Of a stretch of 64,000 nucleotides of DNA, positions 3,657 through 38,042 are shown in pieces (position 1 is the stretch's first letter; each line of letters begins with the position of its first letter). A program made the translations under genes and the position numbers. The notes beneath the pieces are model-generated. The model worked only from the letters and a program-made list of their open reading frames with translations, was not told the DNA's origin and ran no database searches. The stretch is from an uncultured Gammaproteobacteria bacterium. Its GTDB lineage: Bacteria; Patescibacteriota; Patescibacteriia; SG8-24. The DNA is taken from positions 327,538-391,537 of the forward strand of contig CAZBFO010000001.1 of the NCBI GenBank assembly GCA_964491475.1, written 5' to 3'.

Positions 3657-3733
3657 GGTAGTCCCAAGGGGATTCGAACCCCTGTTTTCTCCGTGAGAGG
3701 GAGACGTCCTGGACCGGGCTAGACGATGGGACC
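3656..3733 (-). tRNA. tRNA-Glu (anticodon CUC), CCA encoded
   Basis: 78-nt cloverleaf: acceptor GGTCCCA/TGGGACT (G1-U72 wobble), D-stem GTCT/GGAC, anticodon stem TCTCC/GGAGA with loop CTCTCAC, T-arm AGGGG-TTCGAAT-CCCCT. Close to the E. coli tRNA-Glu pattern. Confidence 0.85.
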
Positions 3734-5171: not shown

Positions 5172-5194
5172 AATCTGTAGTCCTTGCGGGTCAA

Positions 5195-6973
5195 TTAGGT
5201 CCGCTCTGGGGGAATCTGGAGGTATTGTAACAGGTATTTTGCGATGTCTCCAAAGAGAGGTCCGGCCGAGGATTCGGCCCATTGGACGTCCTTGGGGTTG
5301 TCCAGCTCGACCACGATGACGAAGGCGGGGTTATCCACAGGGGCAAAGCCTGCAAAGGAGCCGATGTTTACGCCTTTGAGGTAGCCATGACCGTCAGGGC
5401 TGGGCACTTGAGCCGTGCCGGTCTTGCCGGCCACGAAGTAGCCGGGAACGGCGGCCTTCTTGCCGTGGCCCTTCTCGACCACGCTTACCAGCATGCCGCT
5501 GACCAGCGCCGCCGCGCGCTTGGTGATGACCTGGCGGATGACTTCGGGTTCGACCGTTTCGGCGGTGCCGTCGGCATGAGCGATGCTGCCGACGACGTAC
5601 GGCTTCATCAGCTTGCCGCCGTTGGCGATTGCCGAGTAGGCCGAAGCCATCTGCAGCGGCGTCACCGTGATGCCCTGCCCAAACGAAGCCGTGGCGCTCC
5701 AGATGTCTCCCTTCTTGCGCAGCGACTCGATGTTGCCGCTCGACTCGGTGTCCAGGTCGATGCCCAGCGGGCTGCCGAATCCGAATGCCTCGACGTACTT
5801 GAGGAACTGCTGCGAGCCGACCAGTCGTGAGGCGTAGATGGTGCCGGTGTTGAGTGACTCGTCGAGCACCTGGGTCATGGTCTGCAGGCCGTGGGCCTTG
5901 TGGTCGGAATTCTGGATGGTGAACGGACCGATCTTGACGCTGCCCTCGTCGACGTAGGTGGAGTTGGGCGTGACCTTGCCGGCGTCGATGGCTGCGGCCA
6001 TGGTGACGGCCTTGAAGATGGAGCCCGGTTCGTAGGCGGAAAAGACGGCCCGGTCGTTGAAGGCGCCCACGTCGGTGACGGCCGAGAGGTCGTTGGGGTC
6101 GAAGTCGGGCACGTTGCAGATGGCCATGACGGCGCCGGTGTTCGGGTTCATCACGATGGCCGAGCCGGTGTCTGCCTGATGCCTGATGACCGCCTCGCGC
6201 AGCTTGGTGCAGGTGACGTACTGGATGTTGCGGTCCAACGTCAGCGTCAGGTCGTCGCCGTCCTTGGCGGCGATGAAGCGGTTGGCGCCGCCGATGAGGT
6301 TACCGAGCGAATCGTCGGCGGCGACCGCGGCGGAAGTACCCGACAGCTCTGACTGCCAATGCCCTTCCACGCCGTACCGGCCGACGCGATTGCCGGCATC
6401 GTCGGAGCCGTAAAAGCCGACCGCCTGGGAGAACGATGACTTCTCCGGATAGTAGCGGTATTTGGAAGGGTCGAAGCCGATGCCGGCGAGGTTCAGCGCC
6501 TTCACTTCGGCCATCAGGTCGTCATCGGCCTTGGGTTTGAGCGGGACGTAAGGGGCGTCCTTGCGCGACAGCTTTTCGAGCAGCACCGGCATGTCCATTT
6601 CGAGCACCGGGGCCAAAGCGTTGGCGGCCTCTGCCGGATTCTTGATAGCCCTGGTGTTGGCGTAGACGGTGTAGAGCGTCTTGTTCACGGCCACCGGAAA
6701 CTTGCCGTCGGGCGACTTGGGGTCAAGCGCGTAAATCGTGCCGCGGTCCGGGACGAAGTTGGAGTAACGGTCCCGTTGGCTCTCCGCCAAATCGGCATAA
6801 AACTGGCGTTGCAGCACCTGCAGCACGAACAGCCGCCAGCCGATGGCGGTCATCGCCAACGCCATGAATCCCTTGAGCACCATGAACCGACGCTCTTCCG
6901 AGGAAAAGCGCGGTGACTGACGCGCATGCGCTTGGGAAGGGCGCGGGCGGATGTACGGGATGCGGGGACTCAT
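5195..6973 (-). CDS. ftsI: peptidoglycan D,D-transpeptidase FtsI / PBP2-class penicillin-binding protein
   Basis: N-terminal TM anchor plus dimerisation domain. Transpeptidase motifs S-x-x-K (SIFKAV), SxN region, and KTGTA. The ATG at 6973 overlaps the upstream TGA (ATGA). Confidence 0.9.
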   Translation of the reverse strand: MSPRIPYIRPRPSQAHARQSPRFSSEERRFMVLKGFMALAMTAIGWRLFVLQVLQRQFYADLAESQRDRYSNFVPDRGTIYALDPKSPDGKFPVAVNKTLYTVYANTRAIKNPAEAANALAPVLEMDMPVLLEKLSRKDAPYVPLKPKADDDLMAEVKALNLAGIGFDPSKYRYYPEKSSFSQAVGFYGSDDAGNRVGRYGVEGHWQSELSGTSAAVAADDSLGNLIGGANRFIAAKDGDDLTLTLDRNIQYVTCTKLREAVIRHQADTGSAIVMNPNTGAVMAICNVPDFDPNDLSAVTDVGAFNDRAVFSAYEPGSIFKAVTMAAAIDAGKVTPNSTYVDEGSVKIGPFTIQNSDHKAHGLQTMTQVLDESLNTGTIYASRLVGSQQFLKYVEAFGFGSPLGIDLDTESSGNIESLRKKGDIWSATASFGQGITVTPLQMASAYSAIANGGKLMKPYVVGSIAHADGTAETVEPEVIRQVITKRAAALVSGMLVSVVEKGHGKKAAVPGYFVAGKTGTAQVPSPDGHGYLKGVNIGSFAGFAPVDNPAFVIVVELDNPKDVQWAESSAGPLFGDIAKYLLQYLQIPPERT

Positions 6974-8256
6974 TTGCATGCCCCCTTCTCGTTGGTGATG
7001 CCGAAGTCGAACAGCTTGCCCGGACCGTTGGGATTGCAACCCACTTCGACTTCGTCGCCGTCAGAGACGCCGTCGCCGTCGGAATCCCGGTTGTTGGGAT
7101 CAGTCCCGTAGAAGGCCTCGAGCGAATCAGACAGGCCGTCATGGTCGGTGTCGGACTGGGTGAGGACGGCACCGCCTCCGGAACCGCCCAAGCCGTTGCC
7201 GCCGCCGGTCTCATCGGTACCGTGCTGCACTTCGCCGATCTTGGCCATCGGCAAATGCTGCTGCAAGCCCGAGAGCAGCGACAGCACGAAGGAGGTCACG
7301 TCGGTGAAGTCGCCGGGCGCGTCGGTGCTGCCGATGCGGTTGAAGTTGGAGAAGCGGATATCTGCCGTGAGGTCGCCGCGCCGCGTGCCGGTGTCGATGC
7401 GGACTGCGCACTTGGCGCGATACAGGTAGTAATCGCGGCTGCCGATCCAGAATTCGCATTCCTTGAACGTCAGGCCCGCAAAAAGCGTCTTGGCGGCGGT
7501 CCTTTCGGCGTCGGTGATCGGCCGCTTGAGACGCGCCGCCTCGACCTTCTCGTAAAAGTCCTCCATCAGGACGTTGCCCTCGTCGGTGCGCACCTTGTAG
7601 TGGAAATTCTTGACGCCATCGACGGTTTCGTCCTCAAGCCGCTCGGCGACCGTGAAGAACAGGGTCTTCTTGAACAGCTTGACCAGCGACTTGGCGTCGT
7701 CGTCTGACATGGGCGAAAAGCCCGTGCCGACCATGGGAACGGTCAGCATCTCGAGCATTTTCTGCCGCGCGAGCCGTAACCACTTTCCCTTGAATTTTCC
7801 GAATTGGAGCACGCCCACCTTTTCGGGAATCGCGGTCAGGCGCAGGTAATCGATATCGCCGTCGCGGACGTAATCGCCGGCGAAGTCGTACGGATGGGCG
7901 CTGCCGATCTTCATCTGGAACTGATGGCGCGCCTTGAGCGCTTCGGGATCGCTCATGTTGAACGTGCCTCCCGAATGCCAAGTCAGCGCCTCGGGAGACG
8001 ACTGGTAGGAGCCGTCGGCGCCCTTCTGCGCGGACGATCCGGAGTACGAGATGTCCGCAACCACGTCGACTGCCTTGAGCGAGACCATTTTTGCCTGCAT
8101 GAAACGCAGGATCTCGGATGAGTACGGAAGCGCGAAAAGCAGCAGCAACAGCGCCGCGGCAAAGCCGGCCGCGACGACGGATATGAAAACGGTCAGCAGG
8201 ACGTAAGGCTGCGCGTACCAGCGCGGACCGACATCTTGTCCTTCGAAAGGCTCCAT
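6970..8256 (-). CDS. membrane-anchored hypothetical protein with C-terminal thrombospondin-type-3-like Ca-binding Asp-rich repeats
   Basis: 428 aa. N-terminal TM (LLTVFISVVAAGFAAALLLLLFAL). C-terminal DTDHDGLSDSLEAFYGTDPNNRDSDGDGVSDGDE. Shares a Y-x-R-L-[ST]-x-[IL]-P...GKW segment with the upstream gene. Translationally coupled to ftsI. Confidence 0.6.
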   Translation of the reverse strand: MEPFEGQDVGPRWYAQPYVLLTVFISVVAAGFAAALLLLLFALPYSSEILRFMQAKMVSLKAVDVVADISYSGSSAQKGADGSYQSSPEALTWHSGGTFNMSDPEALKARHQFQMKIGSAHPYDFAGDYVRDGDIDYLRLTAIPEKVGVLQFGKFKGKWLRLARQKMLEMLTVPMVGTGFSPMSDDDAKSLVKLFKKTLFFTVAERLEDETVDGVKNFHYKVRTDEGNVLMEDFYEKVEAARLKRPITDAERTAAKTLFAGLTFKECEFWIGSRDYYLYRAKCAVRIDTGTRRGDLTADIRFSNFNRIGSTDAPGDFTDVTSFVLSLLSGLQQHLPMAKIGEVQHGTDETGGGNGLGGSGGGAVLTQSDTDHDGLSDSLEAFYGTDPNNRDSDGDGVSDGDEVEVGCNPNGPGKLFDFGITNEKGACK

Positions 8257-10975: not shown

Positions 10976-11090
10976 AAGGCCCGTTTTCATTGCGGGTCCT
11001 TTTCTTTTCCCCGGTTGACCCGAGCGACGGAACCTGTTACTTTTCCTCGTCCGCCCGACACCGTGTCGCGTGGCAACAGGAGGACTCCGA

Positions 11091-12281
11091 ATGAATGACG
11101 GCCGCCCTTTCAAAAAGACGTCTCGCGTCCCTCTCAAGGACTACCGGCTGCCCGAAGCGCGTTTGGCGGTGCTCAAACGGTACGGCCACGACATCCGGCT
11201 TCCCGGCATCCAAGCCGCGGAAGCCGCCTCGGTCAAGCTGATCGAAAACGCCATCGGCTCGTTTCCGATACCCATCGGCATTGCCACCAACTTCGTCATC
11301 AACGGCGAAGAACGTTTGGTGGCGATGGCTATCGAGGAAAAGTCGGTAGTCGCCGGCGCTTCCTACGCCGCCAAGCTCTGCCGCGAAAACGGCGGATTCT
11401 CGGTGATCGTCGGACCGAACGTGATGCGCGGACATATCCTGTTCGCTTCCACCCCCAAGTGGCAGCATGACGCATTTGACCGCCTTGGCGGCCTTAACCA
11501 GCTGTGCCGTAAGGCCGCCGAAGAGCTGGACTGCTCGGAGCGCCAAACGCGTGCGCATTGCCGGCTTATCACCGACGGTTTCGGACACGAAGTCTCGGCG
11601 TGCCGGCTGGACGGAGGCTTCGGCAGGCCGAGCCTGCTGGTCATCAACTTCCAGATGGACGTCGGCAACGCCATGGGCGCGAACGCCGTCACCCGCTTCG
11701 GCGAGGATCTGGCAGCCCTGCTGGAGCCGATCATCGGTGCCAAAAGAAAGGCGGTAATCTGCTCCGATGACGCCACCCACCTGTCCGGTTCCGAAGTGAA
11801 GGTGCAGGCAGCGTGGCCCATCGCCCTGCTGGGCAAGGAGGTCGCAGAGACCATCGTCACCCTCCAACATTGGGCCGATGCCGACCCCGCTCGTGCCGTC
11901 ACGCACAACAAAGGCGCGATGAACGGCGTGAGCGCGGTGGCGCTGGCGACGGGTCAGGACGTCCGCGCCATTGAGGCAGCTTCTCACGCAAAAGCTGCCT
12001 ATGAGGGCATGCCCTACGCCTACAGCAAAACGCTGACGAATTACGAGATCCTCGACAGGAATCTCGTCGGCTGGCTGAAGCTGCGAGTGCCGCTTGGCAC
12101 TGTCGGCGGCGCCACCTCGCACCCTACAGCCGTGCAGGTCCGCAAGCTGATGGACGTGGAAAATTTCCAAGACCTTGCGGCGGTCATCGGCGCCGTCGGT
12201 CTCGCGCAGAACTTCGCCGCGTTGCGCATGCTCGCCGACGAAGGCGTAGGCGAGGCGCATAGCCGCCTCAAGGAAACCTGA
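11091..12281 (+). CDS. hydroxymethylglutaryl-CoA reductase, class II
   Basis: ENAIGSFPIPIG and VGNAMGANAV signatures. 396 aa. CAGGAGGA Shine-Dalgarno before the ATG at 11091. Confidence 0.85.
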   Translation: MNDGRPFKKTSRVPLKDYRLPEARLAVLKRYGHDIRLPGIQAAEAASVKLIENAIGSFPIPIGIATNFVINGEERLVAMAIEEKSVVAGASYAAKLCRENGGFSVIVGPNVMRGHILFASTPKWQHDAFDRLGGLNQLCRKAAEELDCSERQTRAHCRLITDGFGHEVSACRLDGGFGRPSLLVINFQMDVGNAMGANAVTRFGEDLAALLEPIIGAKRKAVICSDDATHLSGSEVKVQAAWPIALLGKEVAETIVTLQHWADADPARAVTHNKGAMNGVSAVALATGQDVRAIEAASHAKAAYEGMPYAYSKTLTNYEILDRNLVGWLKLRVPLGTVGGATSHPTAVQVRKLMDVENFQDLAAVIGAVGLAQNFAALRMLADEGVGEAHSRLKET

Positions 12282-13240: not shown

Positions 13241-13315
13241 CGGGGCGTAGCGCAGTGGTAGCGCGCATCGTTCGGGACGATGAGGCCGCAGGTTCAATCC
13301 CTGTCGCCCCGACCA
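13241..13315 (+). tRNA. tRNA-Pro (anticodon CGG), CCA encoded
   Basis: Acceptor CGGGGCG/CGCCCCG, D-arm GCGC-AGTGGTA-GCGC, anticodon stem CATCG/CGATG with loop TTCGGGA, T-arm GCAGG-TTCAATC-CCTGT, discriminator A, CCA. 75 nt. Confidence 0.9.
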
Positions 13316-13317
13316 TC

Positions 13318-13352
13318 AAAGACCTCCGCGAAAAAGCGGAGGTCTTTGCTTT
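13318..13352 (+). terminator. terminator hairpin after tRNA-Pro (GACCTCCGC-GAAAAA-GCGGAGGTC + TTTGCTTT)
   Basis: 9-bp perfect stem. Confidence 0.7.
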
Positions 13353-13381
13353 CCGTACGCCCGCGCTTTCGCGACGATGCA

Positions 13382-13410
13382 TTTATCTGCCAAAAAAAGT
13401 GTGCTAAAGT
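13382..13410 (+). promoter_or_regulatory. candidate extended -10 promoter (..AAAAAAAGTGTGCTAAAGT)
   Basis: TGTGcTAAAGT extended -10 with an AAAA/GTG spacer, similar to the recurring promoter family. About 35 nt before the ATG at 13445, which has no Shine-Dalgarno. Confidence 0.4.
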
Positions 13411-13444
13411 GGCCGCGTTCTCATTCTCGTTTAATTTCACATTC

Positions 13445-14386
13445 ATGAGCAGCCCTGAAAGTCGGCCACCCGCCCCTGAAAGCGCTGGCGAACCACAGGA
13501 GGGAAAGAGGGAAAATATGGCCGAGAGCGTACCCGACGCCGGCGCGGAGGATCGCGAACAACCGCGTCCGGGGTTCACCGTCGAGGCCAACCGGCAGTTC
13601 CTCGGTTTCCAGAAGGTCGAGACGACCAAGGTCGACGAGACTAAGCCATGGAAGCCGGCGCTTGAGGTGCGCGTAACCAACGCAGACGGCTCGATCGAGG
13701 AAGGCGTAGATGCAAACACTGCGTTCTTCACTTTCCATGGCGGGACCGAAGGCGCGCGGGACCTTACGGTTACCGCCGCAGCCGCCGGTCACGTCGACAG
13801 CCTGCACATCAGAGGCACGGAGGCAGGCAGCCACTTCGATTACCCGTCAGTCGAGGAGCTATTTGAGGACGTCGCCGAGCGCATACCCGACAATGTGGCG
13901 ACAGATCCCGGCGTCAGCGCGTTCGACGTGGAAATGGGCAAGCCAATGGGACGCGAAGGTATTGCCTCACGGGCCGAGCTGCTCGCCGACGAGACGATCC
14001 GCGGCGAAGACGTCGTCTCCGCCGACCTCGCCCGCGAGGAGGTACTGGCGTTAAACCGCGAAGGCGCACCGGAGGCAAAGAAGGCATTCATCGAAAAATT
14101 CCGCCGGGATAATCCCGATTCCCGAATCCAGTTCCAACTGGTGCGTGGAGACGTGCTCGTTCCGGTAGTCGTCGCCCCCAAGCGCGAGACGACGAAACTG
14201 TTCCTGGTATTCGGGCCGGACGCGACCGGGGACAAGAAGACGCTCTACACCGCCGCGCCAGGCCGCAACATGCCTCGCCATCCGAACCCGGGACAACACA
14301 GGAACAAAGAGGGCGTGCTTAACGACAGCACCTTCAACGAGTCAGCGAACGCCTGGTTCGACACGGTGATGCTGGTCGGTAAATGA
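13445..14386 (+). CDS. hypothetical protein (313 aa, acidic, no TM)
   Basis: ORF from MSSPESRPPAPE. Start could instead be MAESVP at 13517. No family recognised. Confidence 0.5.
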   Translation: MSSPESRPPAPESAGEPQEGKRENMAESVPDAGAEDREQPRPGFTVEANRQFLGFQKVETTKVDETKPWKPALEVRVTNADGSIEEGVDANTAFFTFHGGTEGARDLTVTAAAAGHVDSLHIRGTEAGSHFDYPSVEELFEDVAERIPDNVATDPGVSAFDVEMGKPMGREGIASRAELLADETIRGEDVVSADLAREEVLALNREGAPEAKKAFIEKFRRDNPDSRIQFQLVRGDVLVPVVVAPKRETTKLFLVFGPDATGDKKTLYTAAPGRNMPRHPNPGQHRNKEGVLNDSTFNESANAWFDTVMLVGK

Positions 14387-29895: not shown

Positions 29896-30216
29896 TTACG
29901 CCTTGATGTCCTGAATGGCGATCGAGGTGAACGGCTGGCGGTGTCCCGCCTTGCGCTTGTAGCGCGTCTTGGCGTGGAACTTGATGATCGTCACCTTGTC
30001 GTGCTTGCCGGCACCGGTGACCTTGGCGGAAACGGTGGCACCCTGCACGGTGGGGGCGCCGACCTTCACGCTCTTGCCGTCCTCGTCCATGACGAGAAGG
30101 GCGTCGAGGGTGAGGACGTCGCCCTCGGCCGCGTCGAGCTTTTCGACACGAAGCGTGTCGCCTTCCTTGACCAAGTACTGTTTTCCTCCCGTTTGGATGA
30201 CTGCAAAATGCGCCAT
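29896..30216 (-). CDS. rplU: 50S ribosomal protein bL21
   Basis: MAHFAVIQTGGKQYLVKEGD is the classic bL21 N-terminus. 106 aa. Confidence 0.95.
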   Translation of the reverse strand: MAHFAVIQTGGKQYLVKEGDTLRVEKLDAAEGDVLTLDALLVMDEDGKSVKVGAPTVQGATVSAKVTGAGKHDKVTIIKFHAKTRYKRKAGHRQPFTSIAIQDIKA

Positions 30217-30260: not shown

Positions 30261-30289
30261 AGTCTAGCGGAAGGCCTCCCGACTGTCAA
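30261..30289 (-). promoter_or_regulatory. promoter TTGACA-17-TAGACT for rplU
   Basis: Consensus -35 and a good -10. About 45-nt leader. Confidence 0.6.
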
Positions 30290-30315: not shown

Positions 30316-30831
30316 TCAGCCCTTTGGCTCCAAATGCTCGCTAATCGGCAGCCCGATCCGCAGTCCGTGAGCCTCGGCAAAGCCTGCGTTTACCTCCAAG
30401 ACCCTGTCTATGGGGACTTTGGGGGCGTAAGTGGGTAACGCACCGTCCGGGCCAGGCACCGGCAGGTTGGTGGTGATGTCGGCAATCTGGCCGTTGCTAA
30501 TCCAGATGATGTCGATAGGGAACCGCATTTCCTTCATCCAAAAACCGTACCTATCGGGCTGCTGGAACACGAAATACATGCCTTCATTAGGGCCAAGACC
30601 GGCGCGACCGGACAAGCCGCGTTCGCGCGCAGGCTCGGTCACCGCAATCGAAACGTCCACACGCAAATCATCGCCGACCGTGACATACCCGCTCCGGAAC
30701 CGGGACTGCAGCGTCGTCAGCACCAACGATGCGACGATGACGATGCCAAAAGCGGCTCCGGCCAAGAGGGACCGGTTGGTCGATCCGAGAAGGAAGGACA
30801 GTTTTTTTCCCTGTTGCGGCGCGTCGGACAT
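30316..30831 (-). CDS. DUF192-family protein
   Basis: N-terminal TM, then NEGMYFVF...MKEMRFPIDIIWI, characteristic of DUF192/COG1430. Confidence 0.65.
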   Translation of the reverse strand: MSDAPQQGKKLSFLLGSTNRSLLAGAAFGIVIVASLVLTTLQSRFRSGYVTVGDDLRVDVSIAVTEPARERGLSGRAGLGPNEGMYFVFQQPDRYGFWMKEMRFPIDIIWISNGQIADITTNLPVPGPDGALPTYAPKVPIDRVLEVNAGFAEAHGLRIGLPISEHLEPKG

Positions 30832-30834
30832 AGG

Positions 30835-31911
30835 TCAGGCTTTTTTACGATACGCGAGCATGGCAACGGCAGTCAACGCGACCAGAATGCTGGCGACCAT
30901 GCCGATGGCCGCCACCTTTTCCCACCCCTGCAGGATGAGCGTCGAAGTCCCGAACAGGGCCGCCACGAAATAATACAGCAGCACCACCTGCCGCTGCGAC
31001 CAGCCGAAATCGAGCAGCCGGAAATGCAGGTGCGAACGGTCACCGGCCGCCGGCGACTTCTTCTGGAGCAGCCGGCGGACGATGACGAATGCGGCGTCGA
31101 AAATCGGCAGTCCCAGGACCAGCAACGTCGTGGCAATCTTTCCGCCCGAGATGATGGCCAGCGTGCCAAGAAGGAAGCCCGCCATCGTCGATCCGCCCTC
31201 GCCGAGAAAAATCGAGGCGGGACTGCCGTTGAACAGCAGGAATCCGGCGAACGCCGCGGCGACGATGACCGCAAGCACCGCCGTGTCCGGCTGCGACACC
31301 TCTTTCATCAGGCTGACGGCTGCGACGACCAGCGCGCCGATGACGGTCACGCCGCTGACCAGGCCGTCGAGCCCGTCGAGGAACTTGGTGGTGTAGGTCA
31401 TGCCCAGCAGCCACAGCACCGTGAAGGCGTCGGCCAATGGCGTGACCTTGTAGGGGATGCCGGCCAGCCACAGCACGGTGACCGAAAACCCGTTCAGGTA
31501 CAGCTGTCCGCCGAAGGGATTGGTGACGAAAGTGATACCGATGCCGCTGGCGACGATGGCCAGCGCGGCCAGTACTGGCCAGACGATCTGTTTCCAGGGC
31601 CGGAGATTTCGGGCGTCATCCCAGGCTCCGCCGAACATCAGCAGGAAGGCAGCGATGACGATGCTGATCAGGAATTTCCCTTTTACGTGCAGGCCCGGCA
31701 GCCAACCGAACCCGATCGCCGTCGCGACCGCCACGGCCATGGCGACGAATACCGCCACGCCGCCCAGCAGCGCCACCGGCCGGCCATGCGCCTTGCGCTC
31801 ACCGTCCGGCCGATCGACTACTCCCGTGCGCCAAGCCAAAAACCGCACCAGCGGGGTGACGCAGGCGGCGACGGCAAACGATATGGCGGCATTGAGCAAA
31901 AGCGTGGGCAT
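30835..31911 (-). CDS. glycosyltransferase family 4 polyprenyl-phosphate sugar-1-phosphate transferase (WecA/TagO-like more than MraY-like)
   Basis: DDxxN (AWDDARN), TKFLDGLDGL, FLGEGGSTMAGFLLG, DRSHLHFRLL. Spacing matches the WecA motifs DGIDGL / GSTLIGF / DRxHIHH. 3-nt gap to the DUF192 gene. Confidence 0.7.
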   Translation of the reverse strand: MPTLLLNAAISFAVAACVTPLVRFLAWRTGVVDRPDGERKAHGRPVALLGGVAVFVAMAVAVATAIGFGWLPGLHVKGKFLISIVIAAFLLMFGGAWDDARNLRPWKQIVWPVLAALAIVASGIGITFVTNPFGGQLYLNGFSVTVLWLAGIPYKVTPLADAFTVLWLLGMTYTTKFLDGLDGLVSGVTVIGALVVAAVSLMKEVSQPDTAVLAVIVAAAFAGFLLFNGSPASIFLGEGGSTMAGFLLGTLAIISGGKIATTLLVLGLPIFDAAFVIVRRLLQKKSPAAGDRSHLHFRLLDFGWSQRQVVLLYYFVAALFGTSTLILQGWEKVAAIGMVASILVALTAVAMLAYRKKA

Positions 31912-31981
31912 GGGCACCGCGTTACTGTAGGCAAAGGTAGCACGGTCCCGGACTGCGGAAAAGACGCGGCCGGATGATTTC

Positions 31982-32018
31982 GAGAAAAAGAAAAGGCGCA
32001 CCGGAAGGCCGGTGCGCC
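31982..32018 (-). terminator. terminator hairpin (GGCGCACCGG-AAGG-CCGGTGCGCC) with a T-tract on the minus strand
   Basis: 10-bp perfect stem. Ends the monocistronic gene 32076-33647. Confidence 0.75.
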
Positions 32019-32075
32019 TTTCGACAGCCGTCAACGACGGCGGTCAATCAAGAAGCTAAGGGAGAGAAAGAACCG

Positions 32076-33647
32076 TCAGCCCATGTACTCGCGCACGATG
32101 TCGCTGGTATCCACGCTGTAATGCGTGGACAGTGCGGCGACGACCAGGTCTTGAATGGCCTGTTCGTGCAGTGCCGAGGTCGGCGAGTACGGGTTGGCGC
32201 GGAAATAGTTGCCTACCGCGCCGCGGTAGTTGGTGAAGTAGATCGCATGGATGAACCTGCCCTGGCGATTCCTGTAGACGAAGTTGCCGGGACTGGCCAA
32301 CTGCGCCTTCACCTGCTCGGTAATCTCGACGCCTTGACGGCGCAGGTCCGCCTCGCGAATCGCCATCGCCACCCGGTCGAGCCGGATGCCGTTGACGCTC
32401 GAGATGACGAACAGCCCGCGGCCGTACATCTGGATGATGACATCGCCCTTGGCCCGCTTCGGCTGCTGCGGCTGGGGACGGGGACCGGTGACTTTCCAAG
32501 ACTTCTTTTTGCCCTGGCCAGCCTCCTTGACCCACGTACCTGACTCGGTATTGCCGCGCCGGGCCACCGCGCCGAAGCGCTGCGACTCGGAGCGGCCGAA
32601 GACCACCATGACCTTGCGGGTCTTCTTGCCTTCCACCTGCGGCAGCATCTCGACCTCGCGGCCGATGGCATGCCGGAAGTAGTCGCCGATGGCGGCGTGC
32701 CACTGGCGTTCCATTTCGCCGAGCGCCTTCTCGGCCTGAACCGCGAACGTTCGCGTCTCACTTTTGACGCGGCCCGCGTCGTTGACGACAAAGGGGTGAA
32801 GGGTCGCCTCGAAATGGGCTTCCGTGCCGACGAGGATCTCGTCGATGCGGAACAGCTTCCGCACGTCGAGATCGTGCATGTCCTCGGGATTGTCGTACAG
32901 CATCCGCACGTTCTGCTCGATTGCCCCGAAGGCGACCGAGGCGAGTGCGTAGACCTTGTGGGGGTCGTTCGGATACTGCGCGTTCCACCCGAGAATCATG
33001 TTCCGCAGGTGACGGGGCGTATGCGGCGTCGGATCGACGTTCGCTTGCGCCGCCGGCATGGGATCGGCCTTGCCCTCAACAGGCTCGGCCGCGTCCATGT
33101 CCTGCAGCATGCCGTCCACGAGGTCGTCCCCGTCTTGCGACGGTTCGGCAGCCTCGGGCTTGGCATCGAGCGACCGGGGAGCGATGTCCTCGCCCGTCAG
33201 GTCGTTCCGGCAGATGACCAGGAAGACGCCTTCCATGATCCGGAGCAGGTGCTGCAGCTCCTTGCGGTCTGCGGCATCCATCTCCTCGACGCGAGCGCTC
33301 AACTCCTCGAGAAGGAGGTGAAGGCTCGACGTCTTGTTTTCGGCCACGCTGTCCGGAAGGACATGCTGGTCGAACCTCCCGCCGCCGCAATCGAGAAACA
33401 GGTATCCCCTGGCCTCGAGCTGCTCCGGCGAGAGCGTCCTCTCTTCCTCCCAGTCGCGCCGCCGAAGCTGGCCGGCCGGGATGAACTTGAGACGCGGCGC
33501 GTCGACGCAACGGAGCGCCTTCCGCACCACGACGTGGCCGCTGATCAGCCAAGCCATCACCAGCGCCTCCGTGTCCGGGGACACGTGCTGCACCAGCGTA
33601 TGAATCATCTGCTTGCGAACGGCATGCGCGTAACTGACCTGGTTCAT
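32076..33647 (-). CDS. large hypothetical cytoplasmic protein (523 aa)
   Basis: ORF from MNQVSYAHAVRK with GAGGAGAG Shine-Dalgarno. Contains GYLFLDCGGGRFDQH, an acidic central linker, and a basic QPKRAKGD segment. No family recognised. Confidence 0.55.
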   Translation of the reverse strand: MNQVSYAHAVRKQMIHTLVQHVSPDTEALVMAWLISGHVVVRKALRCVDAPRLKFIPAGQLRRRDWEEERTLSPEQLEARGYLFLDCGGGRFDQHVLPDSVAENKTSSLHLLLEELSARVEEMDAADRKELQHLLRIMEGVFLVICRNDLTGEDIAPRSLDAKPEAAEPSQDGDDLVDGMLQDMDAAEPVEGKADPMPAAQANVDPTPHTPRHLRNMILGWNAQYPNDPHKVYALASVAFGAIEQNVRMLYDNPEDMHDLDVRKLFRIDEILVGTEAHFEATLHPFVVNDAGRVKSETRTFAVQAEKALGEMERQWHAAIGDYFRHAIGREVEMLPQVEGKKTRKVMVVFGRSESQRFGAVARRGNTESGTWVKEAGQGKKKSWKVTGPRPQPQQPKRAKGDVIIQMYGRGLFVISSVNGIRLDRVAMAIREADLRRQGVEITEQVKAQLASPGNFVYRNRQGRFIHAIYFTNYRGAVGNYFRANPYSPTSALHEQAIQDLVVAALSTHYSVDTSDIVREYMG

Positions 33648-33790
33648 GACGACTCTCCTCGGGTCAAAAAACCCTAGTCCGGATAGGCCGGACACCTTCG
33701 GTTGTCAAACCGCCCTCTCCACGCACTATGCGCAGAAAGAACAACAGACTATAGCACGAAAACACCTTTCTGTCAATCCGTCCATGCAAA

Positions 33791-33820
33791 CAAAAAACGC
33801 TCTGCTAAGCGTTTTTTTTG
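33791..33820. terminator. bidirectional terminator (AAAAAACGCT-CTGCTA-AGCGTTTTTTTT) ending the mraZ-rsmH-ftsL operon
   Basis: Perfect A/T-extended hairpin 50 nt past the ftsL stop. Confidence 0.75.
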
Positions 33821-33870
33821 GAGGGGTTCCTTTTTGATTTCAGACCTCTACTAAGCCGAATTGGCCAAGA

Positions 33871-34227
33871 TTAGCGGATAGCCACCGCTCCCGTGCCGCT
33901 GTTAAGGTAGTCGACGTCAGTCACCGGCACCAAGCCCAAACCCTGGATCTTGCCATCAAGGGAATCCATCGACTCGTCAGTGACTACGGATAAATCCAGC
34001 TTCTGCCGCTGGTTCTGCAGTTCATTGATGCGCCGTTCCATGCTGCGAATGGCAAAACCCTTCTCGGTGGCGCTGTTGTTCAACACCAAATACCCGGCGA
34101 ACAGCGCGATGACGCCCAGCGCGATCAGGGCGTTCAGCACGCGGATGTCACGCCACAGCGGCACGTAGGCGAGGCGCGCCTCGCGGGCCGCGGCAAACGA
34201 CGGCGGATTGTAGCTTGCATGTGTCAT
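33871..34227 (-). CDS. ftsL: cell division protein FtsL-like (bitopic, coiled-coil)
   Basis: 118 aa. Single TM (VLNALIALGVIALFAGYLVL) followed by a coiled coil. Translationally coupled to rsmH (ATGA overlap). Canonical position after rsmH. Confidence 0.65.
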   Translation of the reverse strand: MTHASYNPPSFAAAREARLAYVPLWRDIRVLNALIALGVIALFAGYLVLNNSATEKGFAIRSMERRINELQNQRQKLDLSVVTDESMDSLDGKIQGLGLVPVTDVDYLNSGTGAVAIR

Positions 34228-35108
34228 GGCTTCTTGATGGCAATGCGCAGCTTGGCGCTGCGCGACCGCGAATTCCGCCTGATTTCTTCCTCAGAAGCCG
34301 TAATCGGCCGTTTGGCGACGACCGTCCCCTCTCCCGCCTCGGCCTTTTCCAGGAAAAAACGCTTGACGATGCGGTCCTCCAGCGAATGAAACGAGATGAC
34401 CGCCAGGCGGCCGCCGGGCGCCAAAGCGTCCCACAGCGCCGGAAGCGCCGTGCGGACGTTGCCGAGCTCGTCGTTTGTGGCGATGCGCAACGCCTGGAAG
34501 GTGCGCGTCGGGAACGGCAGCTTGCTCCGCCGGTAGAAGCCGGGGACGGAGTGGGCGATGACGTCCACCAATTGCGTGGTCGTCACGATTTTCGCGTCGC
34601 GTCTGGCTTTGACGATGCCGTCGGCGATCTTGCGGGCCCATTTTTCCTCCCCGTACTCCCACAGGACCCTTGAAAGGTCGTCTGCGCTCCATGAGTTGAC
34701 GATGGAGGCGGCCGTCTCGTCCTGGGTCCGGTCGAAGCGCATGTCGAGCGGCCCGTCGAAGCGGAAGCTGAATCCGCGCGTCGGGTCGTCGATTTCGAGC
34801 GACGAAAAACCCAGATCGAGAAGCGCCGCGTGAATCGGCCCGAAGGACTGGGTGTGGAGGACCCGCTCAAGATGGCGATAGTTCTCGCGGACAAGCATGG
34901 CGCGAGAACCATAGGCACCGAGTGTACTTCGAGCCGCTTCGAGCGCCGCTTCGTCGACGTCGAGGCCCAACAGCTTTCCGTTTGGCGCGGTCTTTGCCAG
35001 CGCGGCGGCGGCGTGTCCGCCGGCACCGAGCGTGCAATCGACCACGTTCTCGTTCGGTTGCAGGTTGAGGCCGTCGATCGTCTCACGGAGGAGAACTGGG
35101 ATATGCAT
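34224..35108 (-). CDS. rsmH: 16S rRNA (cytosine1402-N4)-methyltransferase RsmH/MraW
   Basis: CTLGAGGHA, LLDLGFSS, and SFHSLEDRIVK motifs. 294 aa from MHIPVLL. Confidence 0.9.
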   Translation of the reverse strand: MHIPVLLRETIDGLNLQPNENVVDCTLGAGGHAAAALAKTAPNGKLLGLDVDEAALEAARSTLGAYGSRAMLVRENYRHLERVLHTQSFGPIHAALLDLGFSSLEIDDPTRGFSFRFDGPLDMRFDRTQDETAASIVNSWSADDLSRVLWEYGEEKWARKIADGIVKARRDAKIVTTTQLVDVIAHSVPGFYRRSKLPFPTRTFQALRIATNDELGNVRTALPALWDALAPGGRLAVISFHSLEDRIVKRFFLEKAEAGEGTVVAKRPITASEEEIRRNSRSRSAKLRIAIKKP

Positions 35109-35110
35109 AA

Positions 35111-35542
35111 CTACACTCCCAGTTCGCCCATCCGTTCGGCGATGTCGTTCGAGTCTTTTTCTGTTTTTGCCTTGTAGGCGTCCCAGGACTTTTTGTCCCA
35201 GATTTCGATGCGGCCGTAGAGGCCGGCAACGACGGCATCTTTGGCGATGCCAGCGTAGCGGCGCAGGTATTCCGGCAGCACCACCCTCCCCTGCTTGTCG
35301 ATCTCCACGTCCATAGCGCCGGCGAGCATCAGGCGCGCGAACGCACGGGCGTTCGCCTGGCTGAATGGAAGTGCAGACAGTTTTTCGGCGAGCTTTTTCC
35401 ACTCGGCCATCGAGTATACGAAGAGACAGTTGTCGAGACCCCTGGTCACGACGGCGCCGCCCTTGAGCTCCTTGCGGAACTTGGTCGGTATCGCCAATCT
35501 CCCCTTCTCGTCGACCGCGTGGTTGTACTCACCGATAAACAT
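35111..35542 (-). CDS. mraZ: transcriptional regulator MraZ
   Basis: Duplicated MraZ half-domains (MFIGEYNHAVDEKGRLAIP ... DKQGRVVLP). Confidence 0.9.
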   Translation of the reverse strand: MFIGEYNHAVDEKGRLAIPTKFRKELKGGAVVTRGLDNCLFVYSMAEWKKLAEKLSALPFSQANARAFARLMLAGAMDVEIDKQGRVVLPEYLRRYAGIAKDAVVAGLYGRIEIWDKKSWDAYKAKTEKDSNDIAERMGELGV

Positions 35543-35727
35543 GACAGGAAAAAGTGAGCTGCGGATAAACGGGATTTTACGCTCATTTCAGCGACGTTTT
35601 GCCGCCCGAGCAATTCCCCATTTTTCCCCACTTAAAACCACTACAGTTCAACTATACACCTTTTTTCACCCCGCAACAAGATGAACCTGTGCATATTTTT
35701 CATCAAAAAAGACCGCAACGAGTGCGG

Positions 35728-36336
35728 TCATTCGAACGAGTATGGAACGCCGGTGATGAGGCCGGCGAGTGCGCGCAGGTGCGCCTCCATGTGGTGCTTT
35801 GAGCGATAGGCGGACAGCTCATCGTCGGCCATTTCTGCTAACGTCTTGTGCTCTCCGTCAGGAATGAACACCGTGGCCAGCGGCGACTTGAATGCCGGAC
35901 GCAGCGTTCCCCTTTCGGTCTCGGCGACGCGGCCGCGTTCGCGCCGAGTAAGCACCAACGGCTGCGGATGAAGCGCGTCCATGTAGGCCAGCGCGTCGAC
36001 GAAAGTGCAGGCGCGAGCGGCGTCCGGATAGCACCACAGCAGGTCCAGATACCCGCGGATGCCGAGCTGCTTGGTGGCCCACTTGACGTTAGTGCCGGGA
36101 AAACCCCCGAGCACGTCGATGTGAAAGGCGGAGTCGATCACCATGACAGGCGCCTTGGCGATGGCATAGGCGGCACGGACTTTACCGACGGCAATCTCCT
36201 CGGCGGACTCCGCCTGCAGCTCCGGAAGGTCGACGTCGAGGCGAACGACCTCGATGCCGTAGCCGCCGAGCACGCGGGCGACGCTCGTCACTTTGGCGGC
36301 GTTGCTGGTGGCGAATGACAGTTTTAGCATTGCCAC
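35728..36336 (-). CDS. non-canonical purine NTP pyrophosphatase (Ham1/RdgB/ITPase family)
   Basis: N-terminal LSFATSNAAKV (ATGN..K-type) plus a conserved FHIDV region. Confidence 0.6.
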   Translation of the reverse strand: MAMLKLSFATSNAAKVTSVARVLGGYGIEVVRLDVDLPELQAESAEEIAVGKVRAAYAIAKAPVMVIDSAFHIDVLGGFPGTNVKWATKQLGIRGYLDLLWCYPDAARACTFVDALAYMDALHPQPLVLTRRERGRVAETERGTLRPAFKSPLATVFIPDGEHKTLAEMADDELSAYRSKHHMEAHLRALAGLITGVPYSFE

Positions 36337-36339
36337 GCT

Positions 36340-36655
36340 TCAGGACGACTGACTCGCCCGGAAATCCTCCAGCAACGGAAAAAGTTCCGCGGCCCCGGCG
36401 ATCGTTTCGCGCATCATCTCCTCGTACGGCTGCGGATCCTTTTCGCCGATGTCGGCCATCAGCCGGTCGTAGGCCTTCCGGGGATCGTCATCTTCCTCCA
36501 GGGGAACGTCCGGAGGCAATGCGCCGTCGGGAGAGGTATGGGGCACGTTGAACTGCTGCGCGCAGCCGTCGCACACCAGCGGATGATGCCCGCAGCCGCA
36601 AGCGACCAACGTAACGACCCGAATCTTTCCCTTTCCGCACTTAGGACAGTCCATC
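36340..36655 (-). CDS. small zinc-ribbon protein
   Basis: MDCPKCGKGK...CGCGHHPLVCDGC, then an acidic tail. Confidence 0.45.
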
Positions 36656-36753
36656 TTTGGCTCCTTGTGGATGGCCAGCCCAAAGTAGCAACTAAACAAG
36701 CACCGTGCAAACGCGCGGTGCTTATCCGGCTCCGCAAAAACATGCGGCTCGCT

Positions 36754-37521
36754 TTACCCAAAGCGCTTTCGCACCGGAGACTTCCTGATGTACGCCAACG
36801 CTTCTTCCGCGGTATCGACCAACCTATAGATCTTCATGTCCTCTTTCGAGGCGGCGGCATAGTCCTTGATGACCGTCTGCTCGATCCATTCGAGGAACGG
36901 CGTCCAGAATTCGCGGCCGACCAGGATCATGGGAATCTTCACCGAAATCTTCTTGGTCTGAATCAGCGTCACCAGCTCGGTAAGCTCATCGAGCGTGCCG
37001 AAGCCGCCGGGGAAGTAGACATAGGCCTGCGCCGCGTAGGCCAGCATGACCTTGCGGACGAAGAAGTAATGGAAAGCCTCGCCTTTCTCCACGTACGGGT
37101 TTGCGCGCTGCTCAAAGGGAAGCTTGATGTTCAACCCGAACGAATCCCCTTCCTTGCCGCCTTCGGTCGCTCCGCGATTGCCCGCCTCCATGATGCCGGG
37201 ACCGCCGCCCGTGACGACGCTGTAGCCGTCGTCGGCAAGCAGCTTGCCCAACTTGCGGGCCTCCTCGTACCAGCGGTTGCCCGGCTTAAAGCGGGCCGAT
37301 CCGAATATCGAAACGCTCTTCTTGACGTCGGCGAGGAAATTCCAGCCCGAAACGAATTCAGACATGATCCGCAGAACGCGCCAGTGGAGCGACGATCGGA
37401 AATCGTAATGATGCTCGTTTTCGGGCAGGAACGCGGCGGGGAGGTTGGTCGGACGGGAAGCGGTCTTGCGGGGCTTTTGCGCCTGCTTCGCTTTTCCGCG
37501 AAAGGATTTTTTTGCAGTCAT
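36754..37521 (-). CDS. LOG-family protein (cytokinin riboside 5'-monophosphate phosphoribohydrolase-like, TIGR00730)
   Basis: GGGPGIMEA and PGGFGTLDE motifs. Confidence 0.8.
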   Translation of the reverse strand: MTAKKSFRGKAKQAQKPRKTASRPTNLPAAFLPENEHHYDFRSSLHWRVLRIMSEFVSGWNFLADVKKSVSIFGSARFKPGNRWYEEARKLGKLLADDGYSVVTGGGPGIMEAGNRGATEGGKEGDSFGLNIKLPFEQRANPYVEKGEAFHYFFVRKVMLAYAAQAYVYFPGGFGTLDELTELVTLIQTKKISVKIPMILVGREFWTPFLEWIEQTVIKDYAAASKEDMKIYRLVDTAEEALAYIRKSPVRKRFG

Positions 37522-37580
37522 AGGGATGGTAACGAACGCGGGTATCGTAACACGACGCGACGGCAAAACCAACGCGCAGC

Positions 37581-38042
37581 TCAACGCGCCATCATCCATG
37601 TCCACAGCAATACCGTCGCCGCGGATTGCCAGGCCAAACCGACCCACGCCGGAAGATGCGGGTGAAAGAAATTGTGGTTGCGCGCGTGGAATTTTGACAT
37701 GAAGCCCCACAGCTTCCGGTGGGCGACCATTTCCAGGCCCCACATGACGTCCGGCACGAACGAACCGGCCGCAGCGGCGATCAGGGGAATAGAAATGCCG
37801 CGGGTCCAGGAGTAGTAGCCGAAGACGGCAAGAAACAGCGAACCGTCCACCGCCAAGATGCCGGCGAACCGCAATATCTCATTGCCCTTCTTGGTCCATT
37901 CCCCTACAGGCTCGTCGCCGTGCGGCAGGAAGTCGGCTAGGTAATGCGAAATCCAGCCGACCCCGAAGGCGGCGACGGGATTGGTGATGCCGAGCGCGGA
38001 AACCGCGGCGACGCCGACGGCCGCATGTCCGACTAAAAACAT
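37581..38042 (-). CDS. small integral-membrane protein, possibly YdjM-like metal-dependent hydrolase
   Basis: Four hydrophobic helices with His/Asp-rich loops (YLADFLPHGDE, HARNHNFFHPH). Confidence 0.4.
   Translation of the reverse strand: MFLVGHAAVGVAAVSALGITNPVAAFGVGWISHYLADFLPHGDEPVGEWTKKGNEILRFAGILAVDGSLFLAVFGYYSWTRGISIPLIAAAAGSFVPDVMWGLEMVAHRKLWGFMSKFHARNHNFFHPHLPAWVGLAWQSAATVLLWTWMMAR

Follow-up and report, generated by a model that had tools for sequence, protein, structure and literature searches.

The 64,000-nt stretch analysed here (positions 327,538 to 391,537 of contig CAZBFO010000001.1, hereafter the window) contains the start of a cluster of genes for division and the cell wall (dcw cluster), mraZ-rsmH-ftsL, and indicates that an ancestral dcw cluster has very probably been broken directly after ftsL in a clade of Patescibacteria (the candidate phyla radiation, CPR; Parcubacteria-type metagenome-assembled genomes, MAGs). 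The resulting gene order appears stable throughout the clade, the pieces on either side of the break would form separate units, and the GT4 transferase found nearby would be of WecA type. The most economical reading of the predicted signals gives four transcription units. The first would be a self-contained mraZ-rsmH-ftsL operon of coupled open reading frames (ORFs) that ends at a hairpin and T-run; the second a single gene for a 523-residue uncharacterised protein, running from a near-consensus sigma-70-type promoter to a strong terminator; the third a WecA/TagO-type N-acetylhexosamine (HexNAc)-1-phosphate transferase followed by a membrane-anchored DUF192 protein, with an extended -10 promoter of its own; and the fourth rplU. 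The genes mraY, murE, murD and ftsW would then lie elsewhere in the genome or be absent. Coordinates are collected in Table 1.

The break after ftsL

The three genes of the 5' module are contiguous and coupled, as the preliminary description of this region proposed, and its coordinates for them are correct. The start of rsmH lies 2 nt past the mraZ stop (TAGTTATG), the rsmH stop and the start of the ftsL-like gene overlap as ATGA, and the first two products are identified by profile matches. The third product, a putative FtsL, has one predicted transmembrane helix followed by a coiled-coil-like, heptad-like stretch, and its gene occupies the canonical ftsL position in all relatives compared. 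All coding signal between 30316 and 35542 is on the minus strand, with a G+C content at third codon positions (GC3) of 0.73-0.84; the plus-strand ORFs that overlap these genes have the codon pattern of antisense frames, and the long ones across 29.9-35.6 kb are antisense shadows by a test of G+C at codon positions.

The region ahead of mraZ carries a promoter-like element and, just 3' of its -10 hexamer, three MraZ-box-like repeats. Alignment shows TTGnnn and GTGTATAnT elements upstream of mraZ to be kept in six loci, and the -10 hexamer and the three boxes are invariant in six loci (the window and five relatives) despite scrambled flanks. Published MraZ operators consist of GTG(G/T) boxes with 6-nt spacers (PMC12957436). 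Given that GTGG-type boxes at 10-nt spacing directly 3' of a promoter match this known layout, MraZ probably represses its own operon, and the element is predicted to be a standard MraZ-autoregulated promoter.

Beyond ftsL, the canonical continuation ftsI-murE-murF-mraY-murD does not follow; the gene for the 523-residue protein, the GT4 gene, the DUF192 gene and rplU come next. An ftsI-type gene and murF are present about 27 kb away on the same strand, separate from the 5' module, and on the 3' side of murF lie a tRNA gene (3659-3733) and an RNA ligase gene, not mraY. On the 5' side of ftsI are a TSP3-repeat protein gene and a hypothetical protein gene. At its longest, the ftsI ORF reaches about 70 nt into the end of the TSP3-repeat gene, so the true start is probably further 3'. 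The ftsI-murF pair appears to be co-oriented with two genes of unknown function, not with other dcw genes (5195-8256). Of the ORFs with the strongest coding signature by GC3, 45 were scanned with Pfam or NCBIfam, and apart from the genes just named none of these 45 encodes a Mur ligase, MraY, FtsW or MurG (some 20 smaller ORFs of coding type lay outside the scans); tblastn with E. coli MurE, MraY and MurD gave no match there. These results agree with the preliminary description, which had reported the continuation to be absent after ftsL, ftsI-murF to be displaced by 27 kb and murE to be missing from the window.

The same description placed a perfect bidirectional terminator after ftsL. The stem is indeed perfect, and the A-run before it and the T-run after it are real; the hairpin folds at -11.4 kcal/mol (z -2.56) and was not listed by a consensus terminator scan. 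With just four G-C pairs it would be a weak terminator. The closest relative, L002, keeps the CGCT..AGCG core and the T-run, with one T-A pair changed to T-G, and is without the upstream A-run, so that bidirectionality is not conserved. The gene that follows has, as had been proposed, a promoter-like element and a terminator of its own. The arrangement TTGACA-17-TAnnnT lies upstream of it at 17 of 17 distinct loci, and a TG two bases 5' of the -10 hexamer is found at all 17.

Conservation of this gene order was followed by taking homologues of the 523-residue protein, with their flanks, from NCBI, ENA, JGI and Logan assemblies and by locating the window's proteins in them by tblastn. An identical 523-residue protein with the same neighbours occurs on an independent Logan contig of 10.7 kb. 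The order (uvrC)-x153-mraZ-rsmH-ftsL, in which x153 is a 153-residue membrane protein, is found 5' of the gene for the 523-residue protein in nine lineages (the window, L002, L004, L006, L010, L011, L013, L021 and L024), and the adjacency of that gene to GT4 in 12 lineages, followed by DUF192-rplU, a trypsin-like protease, recR and dnaB where the contig is long enough. Identity across the loci is 31-71% for the 523-residue protein and 69-94% for MraZ. Neither ftsI nor murF is present in the relatives' flanks, which reach 6-10 kb in both directions or as far as the contig goes.

What lies immediately after ftsL varies. Most relatives have a block of 2.6-3.6 kb between ftsL and the gene for the 523-residue protein, which in L004 (6512-9678) and L006 (6620-9762) consists of a small ORF and a ClpB-type AAA+ chaperone gene; gaps of similar size are found in L010, L011, L013 and L021, and the ClpB-type block is missing in the window, L002 and L024. 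In L004, hrcA-grpE-dnaK-dnaJ replaces GT4 after the gene for the 523-residue protein. Given that the gene order recurs across diverged lineages with varying neighbours, it is suggested that the break after ftsL is ancient in the clade and that the downstream content has itself been reshuffled. By this comparison of gene orders, the split is apparently an old, lineage-wide trait and not a recent rearrangement.

The heat-shock genes that recur beside the gene for the 523-residue protein may hint at a stress-related role; a search for a CIRCE/HrcA operator in the window found none. The x153 protein shows, at a sub-threshold Pfam E of 2e-4, a weak HxxxD region like that of Zn-dependent phospholipase C, and in each of the 10 relatives whose flank is long enough its gene stands between uvrC and mraZ. 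In the window, genes for a LOG-family protein, a zinc-ribbon protein and Ham1 are inserted between x153 and mraZ.

Given that the source is a metagenome-assembled contig, it is conceivable that the contig is chimeric or was wrongly joined after ftsL, so that the split would be an artefact and the real cluster continuous. Errors of binning do occur in such data: contigs L010, L011 and L012, whose synteny is that typical of Patescibacteria, were submitted under the names of Candidatus Binatia, Acutalibacteraceae and Vicinamibacterales MAGs, implausible labels that probably stem from binning contamination. Nevertheless, an artefact has next to no likelihood. First, the same junction and order recur in independent NCBI, ENA, JGI and Logan assemblies, in at least nine lineages of Patescibacteria whose 523-residue proteins are only 31-71% identical. 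Second, the intergenic region carries conserved regulatory sequence. Third, composition is uniform across the split, at 61-63% G+C for the whole window.

A second possibility is that the gene for the 523-residue protein is recently inserted foreign or mobile DNA that interrupts an otherwise continuous cluster, as its own promoter and terminator, the lack of annotated homologues and its narrow taxonomic distribution might suggest. This is hardly credible: its G+C content and GC3 match those of its neighbours, it is flanked by neither direct nor inverted repeats, no gene for an integrase or a transposase was found, the gene, its promoter and its leader occupy the same position across the clade, and ftsI does not follow it in any case. 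The break of an older cluster after ftsL, with separate units on either side, is therefore retained as the very likely explanation. Several points weigh against it and should be set beside it: all promoters, terminators and operon boundaries described here are predictions from sequence; the weakness of the post-ftsL hairpin makes some read-through into the next gene possible; the FtsL identity combines gene position and predicted topology with an NCBIfam FtsL_Actino match (E 9e-11) whose 41.6 bits fall short of the cutoff of 55, and Pfam gives no match even at E 5; and the search for a true MraY covered the 64-kb window, not the rest of the genome.

A WecA-type transferase coupled to DUF192

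The GT4 protein matches Pfam Glycos_transf_4 at 92.8 bits (E 3e-26, cutoff 27) and has all three motifs, TKFLDGLDGL, GSTMAGF and DRSHLHF, on which the preliminary description based its view that the protein fits WecA/TagO better than MraY. Profile, BLASTP and tblastn comparisons all favour WecA. The NCBIfam WecA model (TIGR02380, cutoff 326) gives 88.5 bits over residues 11-348, essentially full length, whereas the MraY model (TIGR00445, cutoff 192) gives 48.9 bits over residues 138-321, in the C-terminal half; in BLASTP with the E. coli proteins, WecA scores 67.8 bits (E 5e-17, residues 23-312) and MraY 35.8 bits (E 9e-7, residues 179-325). In tblastn, the E. coli WecA query reaches the GT4 orthologue of each locus, at E values as low as 1e-23, and the E. 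coli MraY query has no match in any locus at E <= 1e-3. The DRSHLHF loop aligns to DRQHIHH of WecA, where MraY has PIHHHY. Among the best 120 of 3866 homologues at E <= 1e-10, 25 are named UDP-GlcNAc:undecaprenyl-phosphate GlcNAc-1-phosphate transferase, nine are labelled "MraY family glycosyltransferase" and none is named MraY proper. Since WecA-type matches are both better and longer than MraY-type ones, the protein is taken to be a WecA/TagO-type polyprenyl-phosphate sugar-1-phosphate transferase.

It is nevertheless possible to regard the protein as a highly diverged MraY that makes lipid I, in which case the cluster would be merely interrupted (mraZ-rsmH-ftsL-X-mraY). The superfamily includes MraY as well as WecA, the dcw 5' module is close to the gene, the window shows no other MraY, and the sole match in a single-sequence phmmer search of the PDB is an MraY (5jnq, 37.5 bits). 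That match is not read as closer kinship, because it reflects which superfamily sequences a single-sequence search can reach. The gene is also not tied to the dcw module, as its replacement in L004 indicates, and, together with the profile scores, loop sequence and homologue names given above, this makes a diverged MraY very unlikely.

In the wider comparison with WecA, TagO and WbpL (GT4, PNPT superfamily), the protein shares DGLDGL, the G(E/D)xGS loop and DRxH(I/L)H in alignment to E. coli WecA, and agrees in size and multi-pass membrane character; it differs in its constant coupling to DUF192 and in scoring below the model cutoff. With MraY it has the superfamily, DGLDGL and the C-terminal half in common, and it is without the HHH motif or a match in the N-terminal half. 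Given that 88.5 bits is far under the cutoff of 326, it would not be a WecA orthologue of the enterobacterial type, and the sugar specificity is not readable from the sequence. Most likely the pair initiates the making of a lipid-linked surface glycopolymer, and does not make lipid I.

The preliminary description also had the GT4 gene coupled to a DUF192 gene, and the start of the latter indeed lies 3 nt past the GT4 stop, consistent with translational coupling. The pairing is kept in every locus that extends far enough 3' of GT4. One 510-residue homologue, P0266, on a 2.9-kb Logan contig, has DUF192 and Glycos_transf_4 domains in one protein and so supports a functional link; the alternative is read-through or a sequencing artefact, which is conceivable because the two ORFs are just 3 nt apart and the contig is short.

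A TGnTAnnnT element lies 5' of GT4 in 11 related loci, with the end of the -10 about 9-23 nt before the ATG. The GT4 gene has no recognisable -35 and no Shine-Dalgarno sequence, its predicted 5' untranslated region being about 16 nt, and the DUF192 gene is likewise without a Shine-Dalgarno sequence. The short leader and the missing Shine-Dalgarno sequences suggest short-leader translation of GT4 followed by re-initiation at DUF192. Elsewhere in the window lies a full-length gene for HMG-CoA reductase (Pfam E 3e-70), which suggests that this small-genome bacterium has a gene of the mevalonate pathway and is relevant to the polyprenyl-phosphate supply for GT4.

A probable DHH-like protein family and its leader

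The 523-residue protein probably represents a very divergent metal-dependent phosphoesterase of the DHH/DHHA1 type, to judge from predicted fold and motifs, and would probably act on a nucleotide or a short nucleic acid. It has no sequence match in Pfam, NCBIfam or the PDB; profile searches of the PDB with two family alignments found nothing, and neither did Pfam on 10 distant family members at E <= 0.001. It has 27 close homologues, and a profile search of 1.84 billion representatives returned 250 relatives, 98 of them at E <= 1e-10; those that are named are "hypothetical protein" entries from Patescibacteria or Saccharimonadales MAGs. The AlphaFold2 (AF2) model has a mean predicted local distance difference test score (pLDDT) of 83.6 and a predicted TM-score (pTM) of 0.83, with the exception of a disordered, highly acidic insert at residues 165-204 (window 33036-33155), where pLDDT is below 50. 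This acidic insert is found only in the window's subclade (P0001-P0003) and is missing in relatives of about 420 residues.

The assignment comes from short-form relatives of 308-345 residues that are without the helical insert of about 90 residues. Long and short families align end to end by hhalign (probability 100%, E 1e-41), and the model of one short form, P0106, has a pLDDT of 92.1. Foldseek with this model matched the catalytic domain of GdpP (probability 0.97), T. maritima TM1595, Borrelia DhhP and M. tuberculosis Rv2837c, as well as family II pyrophosphatase and the DHHA1-like C-Ala domain of AlaRS; for GdpP, TM1595, DhhP, Rv2837c and family II pyrophosphatase the probabilities range from 0.44 to 0.97. 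In the family, the first strand is followed by a conserved HxxPD(x)[DE] and the third by D-x-GGG-x-x-D-x-H, and NDLxGxD holds an invariant Asp; D86, D93, H95 and D149 are invariant. The N-terminal HxxPDxD/E resembles DHH motif I. Among 57 family members, four match DHH (PF01368, best E 0.0036) and one matches DHHA1 (PF02272, E 0.003), all sub-threshold. A resemblance of the motifs to MYG1/UPF0160 is not borne out by Pfam, which gives no such match, and was set aside.

Against the DHH assignment stand the following: Foldseek with the full 523-residue model found nothing significant in the PDB or BFVD, so that the fold was reached through the homologous short form and not through the window protein's own model; TM-scores for P0106 are low, at 0.2-0.3, as would be expected of hinge-linked two-domain proteins; and neither the canonical DHH triplet nor the DHHA1 GGGH motif is seen in the family by sequence motifs alone. 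Compared with known DHH/DHHA1 phosphoesterases (GdpP, DhhP, Rv2837c/CnpB, TM1595, NrnA and family II pyrophosphatase), the short forms are predicted to have the same two-domain architecture (Foldseek probability 0.87-0.97), but no member reaches the Pfam threshold, D-x-GGG-x-x-D-x-H takes the place of a separate DHH motif III, and the helical insert and the acidic insert are additions.

Between the promoter and the ribosome-binding site of this gene lies a leader that, on balance, is somewhat more easily read as a structured cis-regulatory RNA than otherwise, and that would probably control the gene in cis. Promoter and leader are present in the window, L002, L004, L006, L010-L013, L017, L018, L020-L022, L024 and L025, with leader lengths of 75-150 nt. 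The leader is better conserved than the protein: between the window and L002, whose proteins are 71% identical, only two positions differ from UUUGACAAC to just before the ribosome-binding site. Folding each leader, and each segment between anchors, independently gave the same architecture. In P1, an outer stem GUYC...GRAY is followed by an internal loop and, inside that, a further hairpin; next comes a single strand of consensus (C/U)UU(G/C/U)A(C/A)A(A/G); P2, which the window, L002 and L024 lack, is a long hairpin whose tip is of GCAUGGUGC type; P3 is a G+C-rich hairpin; and P4, GGGCU-UUUU-GGCCC (GGGCUUUUUGGCCC), abuts the ribosome-binding site. The P4 motif occurs once per locus, only in the leader position, and in the window reads GGGUU...GACCC, a compensatory change of C-G to U-A.

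Support for pairing comes from several counts. Minimum-free-energy z-scores average -2.1 (n=17) and are negative in 16 of the 17 leaders. In sequence-only alignments of the four closest pairs, folded with RNAalifold, 23 of 268 columns in stems vary as against 94 of 259 unpaired ones; no pair is broken, four changes are compensatory and 15 are one-sided yet compatible. MAFFT/RNAalifold on all leaders mis-registered P1 and P3 and recovered only P2 and P4, and pair statistics were computed directly from a structure-guided alignment of 14 leaders. There, two-sided changes occur at 21 of 26 helix positions with 97% pairing, as against at most 74% for shuffled and 32-46% for slid controls. Rfam (4227 families, Rfam 15) gave no known cis-regulatory RNA family at the gathering threshold in the whole window, and in E-value mode (33500-33900, E <= 10) only chance-level matches with E of 0.5-9. 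The short-form relative at L028, which adjoins UPF0102, lacks a long leader, and its genomic context holds no functional hint.

It is also possible that the sequence acts as DNA, through palindromic operators or a -35-like TTGACA decoy, or is the tail of an upstream terminator. P3 and P4, being palindromic, could serve as sites for dimeric proteins, and the single-stranded motif never departs from TTGACA by more than one mismatch, a near-perfect -35 hexamer that makes a DNA-level role of this motif conceivable. Points against RNA structure are that the mean z-score of -2.1 is modest, that the 97% pairing is partly forced by the way the alignment was built, and that the less circular test, in which the minimum-energy fold was transferred to the closest relative, left 45 changed pairs broken and 34 still paired; in that test stems were nonetheless less variable than loops (15.8% vs 30%, p 1e-7). 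A role as DNA remains an unlikely reading, though one with a real share of the probability. P1, P2 and P3 differ wholly in sequence between subgroups, yet hairpins stand at the same places between fixed anchors, as would be expected if the element were a structured RNA, but not if it were a conserved operator; in P4, C-G is replaced by U-A and A-U; and the whole element lies 3' of the promoter and extends up to the ribosome-binding site. A structured RNA leader is thus slightly preferred. It resembles riboswitches and other cis-regulatory leaders in its place between promoter and ribosome-binding site, in having variable stems and invariant single strands, and in always preceding one gene family. 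It differs from them in lacking an Rfam match, a clear terminator/antiterminator pair or a helix that sequesters the ribosome-binding site, and the statistics in its favour are of moderate strength.

Apart from the features discussed above, the window holds a tRNA gene (Rfam, 67 bits) that overlaps the 5' end of a listed ORF (13280-14386, no Pfam match); the overlap implies that the real start of that ORF, if it is a gene, lies further 3'.

Table 1. Features of the window discussed in the text; promoters, terminators and RNA elements are predictions.
Feature	Position	Strand	Basis or remarks
x153 membrane protein gene	37581-38042	-	
LOG-family gene	36754-37743		
Zinc-ribbon gene	36340-36699		
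Ham1 gene	35728-36336		
Ham1-gene terminator	35711-35729		upstream of the mraZ promoter-like element
mraZ promoter	35651..35679	-	TTGTTG (-35-like, 35679-35674), 17 nt, TATAGT (35656-35651); read from sequence
Three MraZ-box-like repeats, GTGG/GTGG/ATGG	35618..35641	-	starts 35641, 35631, 35621; exact 10-nt period
mraZ	35111..35542	-	Pfam MraZ E 2e-44; NCBIfam TIGR00242 155.9 bits vs cutoff 98
rsmH (16S rRNA m4C1402 methyltransferase)	34224..35108	-	Pfam Methyltransf_5 E 1e-96; TIGR00006 310.9 bits vs cutoff 154
FtsL-like gene, 118 aa	33871..34227	-	position, topology, sub-cutoff NCBIfam FtsL_Actino
Hairpin and T-run ending the mraZ operon	33792..33817	-	perfect 11-bp stem, 7 A-U and 4 G-C pairs; A-run before it
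Promoter of the 523-aa protein gene	33748..33776	-	TTGACA, 17 nt, (TGc)TATAGT; 11/12 consensus matches plus TG
Structured 5' leader (candidate)	33648..33747	-	alignments, folds, substitution/covariation counts
Leader P1 hairpin	33742-33712	-	
Leader single strand UUUGACAAC	33709-33701	-	
Leader P3 hairpin	33693-33677	-	
Leader P4 GGGUUUUUUGACCC	33674-33661	-	
Ribosome-binding site GAGGAG of the 523-aa protein gene	33660-33655	-	
523-aa protein, uncharacterised Patescibacteria family	32076..33647	-	GAGGAG ribosome-binding site; putative divergent DHH/DHHA1-like, helical and acidic inserts
Strong intrinsic terminator of the 523-aa protein gene	31991..32022	-	14-bp stem, 9 G-C pairs, T-run; -26 kcal/mol, z -5.6
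Extended -10 TGcTACCTT upstream of GT4	31934..31942	-	read from sequence; putative function
GT4 polyprenyl-phosphate sugar-1-phosphate transferase, WecA/TagO-like, 358 aa	30835..31911	-	Pfam Glycos_transf_4 PF00953
DUF192 protein, N-terminal membrane anchor	30316..30831	-	Pfam DUF192 E 3e-27
rplU promoter	30261..30289	-	TTGACA-17-TAGACT; promoter scan
rplU	29896-30216	-	Pfam Ribosomal_L21p
tRNA gene	13241-13312	+	Rfam
HMG-CoA reductase gene	11070-12281	+	Pfam
ftsI-type class B penicillin-binding protein gene (FtsI/SpoVD type)	5195-7039	-	NCBIfam, Pfam
murF	3882-5282	-	TIGR01143 290 bits vs cutoff 288.6

Relation to known dcw clusters and meaning

The first three genes follow the order of the canonical E. 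coli dcw cluster, with the same tight coupling, including the rsmH/ftsL overlap, and with GTGG-type repeats by the promoter as at known MraZ operators. The E. coli cluster continues (mraZ-rsmH-ftsL-ftsI-murE-murF-mraY-murD-ftsW...), whereas that of the window stops after ftsL at a hairpin and T-run, its ftsI and murF being 27 kb off with no murE between them and no mraY after them, and its new neighbours being unrelated to peptidoglycan. Sub-clusters that keep their internal order are known from Chloroflexi and Planctomycetes, and the cluster is nearly lost in Cyanobacteria (PMC8871954); fragmented clusters in other phyla make the present split less surprising. Mollicutes retain little beyond mraZ-rsmH and ftsZ, as mraZ-rsmH-x-ftsZ (PMC8475190). 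Megrian et al. 2022, as summarised in a review (PMC10221324), found both the dcw genes and the order in which they stand to be conserved in bacteria, those of the CPR among them. The window is like the known fragmented clusters in having sub-clusters with internal order and in the survival of the mraZ-rsmH 5' module as a unit; it is unlike them in coming from a Patescibacteria clade, and in that the 5' module keeps ftsL and loses ftsI while ftsI-murF survive elsewhere. A clean break after ftsL in a CPR clade is a new form of a known variation and changes no concept, and a WecA-like paralogue near a dcw module is ordinary. What is newly described here is an unannotated, probably DHH-like family of Patescibacteria together with its conserved leader.

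For annotation, a GT4 gene next to mraZ-rsmH-ftsL is easily miscalled mraY; in this case it appears to be a WecA-type initiating transferase, and together with DUF192 it suggests that this group, about whose envelopes little is known, has a pathway for a lipid-linked surface glycopolymer. That the MraZ-box promoter and the three-gene module are kept after the break fits mraZ-rsmH-ftsL as an independent regulatory and division module. The element most worth experiments is the DHH-like family with its leader. A more speculative and rather doubtful idea is that the leader (P1, the UUUGACAAC-type strand, P2 with its GCAUGGUGC tip, P3 and the GGGCUUUUUGGCCC hairpin P4) may be a new Patescibacteria-specific class of cis-regulatory RNA, a riboswitch or a protein-binding element, that controls a new divergent DHH/DHHA1 branch. 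Since the closest structural matches of the family degrade c-di-AMP, pApA or nanoRNA, leader and protein could on this view form a circuit not seen before in the CPR, for a nucleotide signal or for nanoRNA homeostasis. If the leader senses a ligand, it would link "dark matter" genes of the CPR to nucleotide signalling or RNA turnover.

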